IMG/VR virus record: IMGVR_UViG_2718218131_000002
DNA: 64,000 nucleotides
Source of the DNA: a virus
Taxonomy: Duplodnaviria; Heunggongvirae; Uroviricota; Caudoviricetes
Direction: 5' to 3' (one strand)
This document shows positions 61,815 to 62,190 of this stretch, piece after piece. Below the pieces are notes generated by a model. That model saw only the letters and a program-made list of their open reading frames with translations. It made no database searches and had not been told where the DNA came from. Position 1 is the stretch's first letter; the number at the start of each line of letters is the position of its first letter. The position numbers and the translations under genes were made by a program.

Positions 61815-62190
61815 AACGCAAAATTGCGTTGGCTGGCAAAGTGCAAAATTGCACGATGGCCTAACCCATTGATTATTTCGAAAACCTGCAATGCAGGAAA
61901 TCGGGGAAGTAAGCCTAAGCTATTGATTCTTTCGGAAACCTCAATTTGAGGAAGTCGGCGCGGTAACTCGCTGAACTTAAAGCAAAGCTCAAAATTGAGC
62001 TGGCTGAATAATCATTATGATTACGCAGATGATTAAGGAATGACCGAAGGCGGAAATTCGCCTGTGGTTGATGGGGGAGTTGCAGATCTGCAACTCGACC
62101 ATGAAACTACGGAAACTACCCGTAGTTTGGGTAGTAAGAGTAACACCCAGATTTTGGGGCTTACTCGTGATACCCAAATTTGGAGTATCG
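61815..62190. repeat. array of at least 9 distinct short palindromes with A/T-rich centres
   Basis: ACGCAAAATTGCGT, GTGCAAAATTGCAC, CCTGCAATGCAGG, CCTCAATTTGAGG, AGCTCAAAATTGAGCT, GGCGGAAATTCGCC, TTGCAGATCTGCAA, ACTACGG...CCGTAGT, CCCAGATTTTGGGG; two units share ~50 bp of flank. Confidence 0.5.

Follow-up and report, generated by a model that had tools for sequence, protein, structure and literature searches.

The DNA analysed here is the 64,000-nucleotide (nt) stretch of IMG/VR virus record IMGVR_UViG_2718218131_000002 (the window), and its subject is an array of palindromes at the right end of a satellite island. The island measures 10.6 kb, lies at the right end of the window and is flanked by roxA (50620-51750) and phoQ (62540-64000), both on the minus strand. 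It is a phage-inducible chromosomal island (PICI) of the EcCICFT073 family, a phage satellite of Escherichia coli, an assignment made because the prototype in strain CFT073 shares its site and architecture; PICIs of the EcCICFT073 type have been described (PMC6092414, PMC6739421). The island encodes, in order, an integrase, AlpA, an Icd-like protein, a DUF4222 protein, a primase and a single-stranded DNA-binding protein, followed by a lambda-E-like capsid protein, a decoration protein, an AlpA-like helix-turn-helix (HTH) protein, a Nu1-like small terminase subunit (TerS; 60976-61503, plus strand) and orf93 (61515-61796, plus strand). The TerS gene and orf93 are the final genes of a rightward operon and are followed by approximately 740 bp without annotation; RefSeq likewise places no gene between orf93 and phoQ in an identical island. 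The array begins 19 nt past the orf93 stop codon. A first-pass annotation had described at 61815-62190 an unexplained set of different palindromes, including two neighbouring units with a shared flank of about 50 bp, and no convincing open reading frame (ORF), and all of these features were confirmed.

With palindromes defined as perfect, with an arm of at least 6 and a gap of at most 4, positions 61800-62200 contained 8 palindromes against 0.44 ± 0.68 expected (2000 dinucleotide shuffles, maximum 5) and formed the palindrome-richest 400-bp segment of the 64 kb, the next locus holding 4. Nine perfect palindromes and several imperfect ones were located within 61815-62215. The perfect palindromes are AACGCAAAATTGCGTT at 61815-61830 (7+2+7), GTGCAAAATTGCAC at 61841-61854, CCTGCAATGCAGG at 61885-61897, CCTCAATTTGAGG at 61939-61951, AGCTCAAAATTGAGCT at 61986-62001 (minus strand), TAATCATTATGATTA at 62009-62023 (7+1+7, recurring in related PICIs), GAGTTGCAGATCTGCAACTC at 62077-62096, AAACTACCCGTAGTTT (AAACTAC-CC-GTAGTTT) at 62113-62128 and TAACGACTTTCGTTA at 62201-62215, and the core CAAAATTG is common to three palindromes. 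Imperfect symmetry was found in the near-dyad GGCGGAAATTCGCC at 62049-62062, which reads GGCGGAATTCCGCC or GGCGGAAATCCGCC in related islands, and in GATACCCAAATTTGGAGTATC at 62169-62189 (GATACCC-N7-GGAGTATC). The array extends rightward past 62190, to about 62350. This part contains a 27-bp dyad, CAACCATAACGA-CTT-TCGTTACGGTTG, at 62195-62221 (minus strand), and a degenerate dyad, CCCCATTGGGG or ACCCCATTGGGGG, at 62230-62242, which comparison with the class-3 units of PICI L021 and of phage roi genes identified as a class-3 Roi-type site with a decayed GTTGAT flank to its left. The final dyad before attR, the right attachment site, is the near-palindrome CGTTATGTGGATCCCCATATCG at 62331-62352, which includes TATGTGGATCCCCATA at 62334-62349; in many PICIs, EcCICFT073 among them, its symmetry is perfect (TATGGGGATCCCCATA). 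The short local ORFs of the array gave no Pfam match. The region was not a clustered regularly interspaced short palindromic repeat (CRISPR) array, as had been noted earlier, since it holds a lone 54-nt tandem pair at 76% identity (unit a, 61859-61912; unit b, 61913-61966) and otherwise no repeated unit. Units a and b differ mainly in their inner palindrome arms.

Megablast of the region returned, besides islands, a 48-nt stretch inside lambdoid genes annotated as roi, Rha or KilAC antirepressor, on the opposite strand. This stretch corresponds to unit b (minus strand), which combines the dyad CCTCAATTTGAGG with a consensus site for integration host factor (IHF), AATCAATAGCTTA, at 61916-61928 (minus strand), and is a fragment of class-1 (HK022-type) roi, 45 of 48 nt being identical to the roi/Rha-KilAC genes of HK620, H-19B, HK75, Shiga toxin (Stx) phages and Kapi1. 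Within the class-1 roi genes the dyad CCTCAATTTGAGG encodes P-Q-I-E-V and a perfect IHF consensus overlaps I-N-x-L-G. Unit a (minus strand) has the same composition, with the IHF consensus AATCAATGGGTTA at 61862-61874 (minus strand) and the dyad CCTGCAATGCAGG, and is a fragment of class-2 roi (36 of 40 nt identical to the phage genes), its dyad lying inside roi genes with the recognition helix SRPDNVKISIERL. A class-3 unit in PICI L021 was identical to phage roi at 48 of 53 nt, and the fragments of all three classes have the IHF consensus beside their dyad. The difference between the two neighbouring palindromes, which had been read as preserving pairing, is real, and it reflects two phage roi alleles instead of RNA covariation that arose in place. 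In both units the 13-bp dyad and a perfect IHF consensus keep a constant spacing, and the sites are homologous to the roi stretch P-x-x-x-V...I-N-x-L-G. The IHF consensus WATCAANNNNTTR has 6 matches in the 64 kb, 2 of them in units a and b.

The roi classes were obtained from an IMG/VR pattern scan with the unit flank and from a second scan with the Roi alignment. Results showed four dyad classes in phage roi, in which the 13-bp symmetry is kept in coding sequence and switches along with the HTH recognition helix; helix and dyad are about 75 bp apart, and linkage contributes to this co-variation. On the gene strand, the dyad CCTCAAATTGAGG occurs with the recognition helix KRHDNVKRTIETL (class-1 genes), CCTGCATTGCAGG with SRPDNVKISIERL or SRHSNVKVSIDRL, CCCCCAATGGTGG with SRHDKVKQSIERL, and CCTCCAATGGAGG with SRPDNVKRTIERL. 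The IHF consensus is kept in all phage roi classes. The class-3 dyad was asymmetric in every phage gene sampled, and its asymmetric form CCACCATTGGGGG was found only inside roi genes. Perfectly symmetric versions, CCCCCATTGGGGG in 9 sequence contexts and CCACCATTGGTGG in 2, were confined to non-coding PICI arrays, including that of EcCICFT073. At least one Roi-class dyad was present in 21 of 40 distinct arrays, and 4 of the 40 contained three Roi-class dyads.

The Roi protein of phage HK022 is reported to bind a site that lies in the roi gene itself, adjacent to a site for IHF. Unit b matches this roi stretch over a length that takes in the 13-bp dyad and the adjoining IHF consensus; the satellite site differs in lying outside genes, in being arranged in tandem over several classes and in being mixed with dyads of other families. 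Further dyads were observed inside many phage roi genes, namely ATGGCAATGCCAT at codons 6-10 (nt 17-29; loci L086, L095, L099 and others) and ACTACG(A/C)CGTAGT at codons 55-59 (nt 165-177), the latter resembling an ACTAC dyad of the array.

The other dyads with phage counterparts led to genes of the same functional class. The dyad at 61815 was identical over 19 of 19 nt (ACGCAAAATTGCGTTGGCT) to phage loci L099 and L132, at codons Q-R-N-F-A, and the L099 gene that holds it matched Pfam Phage_pRha at 2.2e-28. The dyad at 61986 was identical at 32 of 39 nt to gp63 of phage Sf101, a Sf101/P22-type rha gene with pRha and ORF11CD3 domains, in which CAAAGCTCAACTTTGAGCTTTG occupies codons 58-65 and the dyad covers L-N-F-E-L-C; marginal BLAST matches of this dyad were to Rha genes of Shigella, Klebsiella, Acinetobacter and Staphylococcus phages. 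The minus strand of the dyad at 61841-61854 reads S-C-N-F-A-L-C, against K-L-N-F-E-L-C in Sf101 Rha, and by this motif alone it is a candidate Rha-like dyad, for which a phage source was not found. The dyad at 62195-62221 was identical at 27 of 32 nt to ant in 255 phage records (933W and 254 others); in 933W ant (Pfam P22_AR_N, 1.4e-45) it lies at codons 49-59 (S-T-I-T-E-I-V-M-V-A-E). For the dyad at 62077 (as GTTGCAGATCTGCAAC), 12 of 15 IMG/VR matches were associated with a KilA-N gene, the dyad being inside the gene in three contigs and preceding it by about 150 nt in nine. It is also intragenic in Pasteurella phage Pmp14, and the codons that it covers in Pmp14 and in the three contigs are K-L-Q-I-C-N-S. 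Several dyad matches were marginal singly (E of 3 to 9), but they recur in one functional class of genes and always in the part encoding the N-terminal DNA-binding domain, which chance does not explain. Sequence identity to these genes makes it very probable that at least six dyads of the array stem from phage antirepressor-family genes. In phi80 and P22, rha is under IHF control, and in the absence of IHF it inhibits growth of the phage (PMC4936722, citing Henthorn & Friedman 1995).

The genes themselves are missing from the satellite. No roi, rha or Rha-like protein gene was found in the island (island proteins and tblastn), and an island-encoded Rha-like binder was rejected as none was present among the island proteins. 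A degenerate rha or roi pseudogene was also rejected, tblastn giving only short fragments and the local ORFs no Pfam signal, as was the resident neighbouring prophage as the source, since within the window it lacks all of the palindromes and any homologue of Roi, Rha or KilA. No intact Rha, Roi or KilA gene was found beside the array in 56 PICIs.

All related PICIs whose downstream sequence was long enough, EcCICFT073 and a PerC/Q-type island at another att site among them, had a differently shuffled array in the equivalent position, and no conserved protein was encoded there. Comparison of 56 loci (TerS 82-97% identical to that of the window) gave 35 distinct arrays. Different islands hold different Roi classes, class 1 or class 3, in one array slot, and among closely related arrays 7 of 7 variable arm columns retained perfect symmetry. 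Array modules were shared by PICIs at three right-hand junctions, namely phoQ (the window), dinD (L084) and prophage portal/protease genes (L019-L027). The most widely conserved module, designated block M4, is located at 62065-62194 (130 nt) and holds GAGTTGCAGATCTGCAACTC, the AAACTAC..GTAGTTT dyad and the GATACCC-N7 dyad; it was found in 112 loci with 38 distinct sequences, 75-99% identical, and 97.6% of its pair cells were complementary. Block M4 is joined to differing downstream sequence among islands, and two copies about 434 nt apart were seen in some PICIs (L317, L329, L346 and L368). Matches were present in 1,887 E. coli genomes, and a search of genome contigs with TerS patterns for species breadth gave no match.

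Taken together, the array is best explained as a functional protein-binding array made of dyad sites for phage regulators, a reading to which we assign a probability of about 0.55. In the phages, the dyad is most likely the operator of the gene's own dimeric DNA-binding product. The satellite would have assembled its array from 19-54 bp pieces of the 5' coding regions of Roi, Rha and Ant (P22_AR_N) genes and from a KilA-N-linked dyad, keeping the operator alone, plus the IHF site in the Roi units, and so would cover several specificities, Roi alone contributing as many as three classes. Regulators expressed by a lambdoid phage, either the helper or a superinfecting one, would bind to the satellite array (with IHF at the Roi units), and the array, present at high copy in the induced satellite, would act as a multi-specificity sink or sensor that shifts the level of free regulator in the phage. 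A role as sink or sensor would follow from the multicopy state of the induced satellite; we infer both this role and binding in the satellite context from sequence, and that the array serves as a sink for phage regulators is put forward only tentatively. The earlier suggestion of operator-like sites for different helper types therefore fits best in its general form, the part on different helper types being supported for Roi, three classes of which occur in tandem in PICI arrays; the proteins to which the sites point are antirepressor-family regulators and not CI/Cro immunity repressors.

Several points weigh against this reading. The whole case for a binding array is drawn from comparison of sequences. 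No phage counterpart was found for the dyads at 62009, 62049, 62113, 62169 and 62334; TAATCATTATGATTA and GGCGGAAATTCGCC had no phage match at E<=10, and the ACTAC dyad (AAACTAC..GTAGTTT) occurred in PICI context only. The KilA-N link comes from Pasteurellaceae-type phages and not from E. coli phages. Block M4 contained just 2 covarying pairs, a level matched by 47 of 500 shuffles and not significant, and selection on the array units is not uniform, because some units have decayed, such as CCTCAAATTGAAG in EcCICFT073. All four orientable fragment families, including the Roi units, both Rha fragments and Ant, are antisense to the rightward operon of the satellite, an orientation that is not expected if the array consists simply of double-stranded DNA sites. 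Titration would be partly offset by negative autoregulation of the target protein. In addition, the array is not the primary induction switch, because in EcCIMP1 only the alpA promoter responds to the helper (PMC11773190).

EcCIMP1 also shows an unexplained lysogen-dependent boost of superinfection immunity (PMC11773190). An antirepressor sponge could yield an immunity boost of this type, which is only a lead because EcCIMP1 has just scattered palindromes. In EcCIMP1 a perfect 20-bp palindrome (TTTCCCCAAATTTGGGGAAA; L226 19932-19951, E. coli MP1) lies inside an antA/AntB antirepressor gene, and its core CCCAAATTTGGG recurs in arrays; intragenic dyads may extend to antA/AntB as a fifth family of regulators.

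The first alternative to be weighed is that the array is recombination debris, left where the variable 3' end of the PICI recombines with lambdoid phages, the palindromes being points of breakage and rejoining without a role. The extreme mosaicism (35 distinct arrays in 56 loci), the degenerate units such as that at 62230-62242 of the window, the non-significant covariation in block M4 and the five dyads without a known source all agree with it. However, the fragments are centred on dyads and hold little else except the IHF site of the Roi units, the dyads are mostly perfect, and the class-3 dyads have become symmetrical in PICIs only. The symmetry kept in all variable arm columns of close arrays, the position kept across PICIs with different att sites and gene sets, and the conservation of block M4 over 112 loci also argue against debris, and we regard this explanation as unlikely.

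A second alternative is a battery of antisense RNAs, in which a read-through transcript from cos through TerS and orf93 would carry stem-loops that kiss the roi, rha and ant messenger RNAs and silence them. All late satellite genes are encoded on the plus strand, to which the orientable fragments are antisense. Orf93 is not separated from the array by an intrinsic terminator, the plus strand of the region folds much more stably than shuffled sequence (z = -9.3), and in the first dyad of block M4 one path from G:C through G:T to A:T was seen on that strand. The minus strand folds equally well (z = -9.6), however, and single mismatches showed no strand bias (12 G/T versus 9 A/C). The symmetrised class-3 dyads and centre flips (AA to TT in GCTCAAAATTGAGC) reduce complementarity to the target and retain symmetry, retention of the IHF consensus is a feature of the DNA level, and the complementary stretches are short, at 19-54 nt. 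Of 89 distinct palindromes from the arrays, 54% were symmetric to within 0-2 nt of the centre; the share in control DNA was 34%. Centred symmetry, equal folding of both strands, unbiased mismatches and class-3 symmetrisation are the reasons for preferring double-stranded DNA, and together they favour recognition by a dimer over an RNA hairpin. The sar RNA of phage P22 pairs with ant mRNA by loop-loop kissing and is alike in its target class, an antirepressor gene, and in its antisense orientation; the array differs in having no promoter or terminator that would define a small RNA and in a symmetry that points to double-stranded DNA. Structured RNA hairpins, the other candidate of the first-pass annotation, are thus less favoured and appear improbable, as both strands fold equally, the IHF consensus is retained and the PICI copies are symmetrised.

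An integration or excision arm of the phage attachment site attP, with arm-type sites for Int, for Xis/AlpA or for IHF, is very improbable. The array lies 35-620 bp to the left of attR (62385-62460, plus strand; the island end), whose core GGTGTAGTTAATGGTGTAGTTAATT is common with attL (51890-51968), the similarity of the two beginning near 62385; IHF consensus sites are present, and the island encodes two AlpA/Xis-like proteins. Nevertheless, modules occur beside three differing junctions (phoQ, dinD and portal/protease), block M4 is joined to different downstream sequence, the matches are to phage regulator genes and not to repeated arm-type sites, and most modules lie 200-600 bp from the core. 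Known attP arms, as in lambda attP, reach about 150 bp. A packaging (cos/cosB) or replication-origin element is next to negligible as an explanation, for although the array adjoins the TerS gene and the lambda ori iterons are alike in style (TCCCTCAAATTGGGGGA), the array has no cosN, a cosQ-like stretch and an exact lambda cosN (GGGCGGCGACCT, 60816-60827) are found upstream of TerS at 60785-60830 (plus strand) in the arrangement of lambda and EcCICFT073 (PMC9026076, PMC6739421), GGTGAACAGT iterons are located at 57810-58050, no O-type gene carries array dyads, and the array palindromes are all different, unlike iterons.

Other identities for the region were also rejected. No Rfam 15 family reached its gathering threshold, the best being manA RNA (21.6 bits against 55.2) with a sub-threshold match at 61986-62155 (E = 0.004) that is regarded as a by-product of the stacked hairpins. 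Intrinsic terminators were represented by 2 weak candidates against 1.2 expected, no main palindrome having a plus-strand T tail, and no promoter-like sites were found in the region. A host operator of the LacI/PurR type was considered for ACGCAAA...TTGCGT, which resembles a PurR box, and was dropped because the spacing is different and there is no central CG. The 20-mer GAGTTGCAGATCTGCAACTC was found in five unrelated contigs of metagenome-assembled genomes (L227-L231), where it always forms the middle of a perfect foldback of far greater length; these foldbacks are probably assembly or library artefacts.

The reading as a binding array can be placed beside known systems. Satellite P4 carries sites for regulators of its helper P2, namely Cox at PLL and the Ogr/Delta-responsive late promoters. 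As in P4, the sites would lie in satellite DNA, respond to helper regulators and couple the satellite to the helper life cycle; in contrast to P4, whose sites are promoter elements for one helper type, the array has no apparent promoter, has many specificities and consists of operator copies from inside helper genes. The E. coli locus datA, with DnaA boxes and IHF, titrates a protein, and, if the sink model is true, the array would resemble it in that clustered sites, together with IHF, leave less of a DNA-binding protein free. The two are unrelated in sequence, and datA serves a single protein whereas the array would serve several unrelated specificities on a mobile element. Palindromes, inverted repeats or Rha/Roi sites at the right end of PICIs were not mentioned in full-text literature searches and in PICI papers including PMC6092414, PMC6739421 and PMC9026076.

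The remaining features of the island and its neighbourhood were as follows. EcCICFT073 and the island are alike in the roxA/phoQ att site, the gene order, the capsid and decoration genes and the lambda-like cosQ/cosN upstream of the packaging gene, and EcCICFT073 has a small array of its own in the equivalent position. They differ in the packaging gene, which encodes RppA in EcCICFT073 (L225 13660-14094, shorter) and the Nu1-like TerS here, where Pfam Phage_Nu1 covers residues 60-142. The EcCICFT073 family has two solutions for hijacking packaging, a Nu1-like TerS or RppA, because both are found at the same chromosomal site. The cosN 12-mer GGGCGGCGACCT is also present in the neighbouring prophage at 19853-19864, and because of this identity the prophage is a candidate helper with matching cohesive ends. 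The GGTGAACAGT iterons, about 11 copies in both orientations, are placed directly 3' of the primase gene and presumably form the satellite replication origin; PICI origins have been reported 3' of the primase gene (PMC6092414). A further perfect IHF consensus, AATCAATGCATTA, was found at 62500-62512, just beyond the attR core in the direction of phoQ. Rfam matches in the neighbouring prophage region were a sok antitoxin RNA at 5470-5644, three transfer RNAs followed by the small RNA STnc100 at 12115-12630, and the ALIL (IS3 frameshift) pseudoknot at 18792-18908.

Among the related elements, a PerC/ProQ-type island near dinD (L084 7004-8652) has a 1.6-kb array flanking a small Q-family antiterminator gene, so that accessory genes can sit inside the array. 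In L019-L027 and L036-L037, lambda-like portal/protease genes follow directly after the array; these contigs hold PICIs that sit within late operons of prophages, a type described in PMC10111431.

Satellites bearing sites for helper regulators are known from P4, and what is new here is the combination of captured intragenic operators for many specificities in one array, together with the generality that this implies for such operators in antirepressor-type genes. Binding of helper regulators to the array, if it occurs, would add a layer to the interaction of satellite and helper, in which several helper proteins are read or buffered through borrowed DNA sites and not through the satellite's own proteins. 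As a more speculative possibility, PICIs may hold an 'operator library', a fast-evolving DNA sponge of captured operators which, after amplification, would sequester Rha, Roi, Ant and KilA-N proteins and so tune helper development or reinforce the superinfection immunity of lysogens, a possible explanation of the lysogen-dependent immunity of EcCIMP1 (PMC11773190). The rule implied is that regulators of the Rha, Roi, Ant and KilA-N types hold their own operators inside their genes; if this is true, intragenic dyad operators would be general, and largely unrecognised, in antirepressor-type genes, and they would give handles on the DNA specificity of common, poorly understood phage proteins. EcCICFT073 has such an array and existing genetic tools, which makes these proposals directly testable, and the arrays could serve as a sequence record of the phage regulator types met by a satellite lineage.

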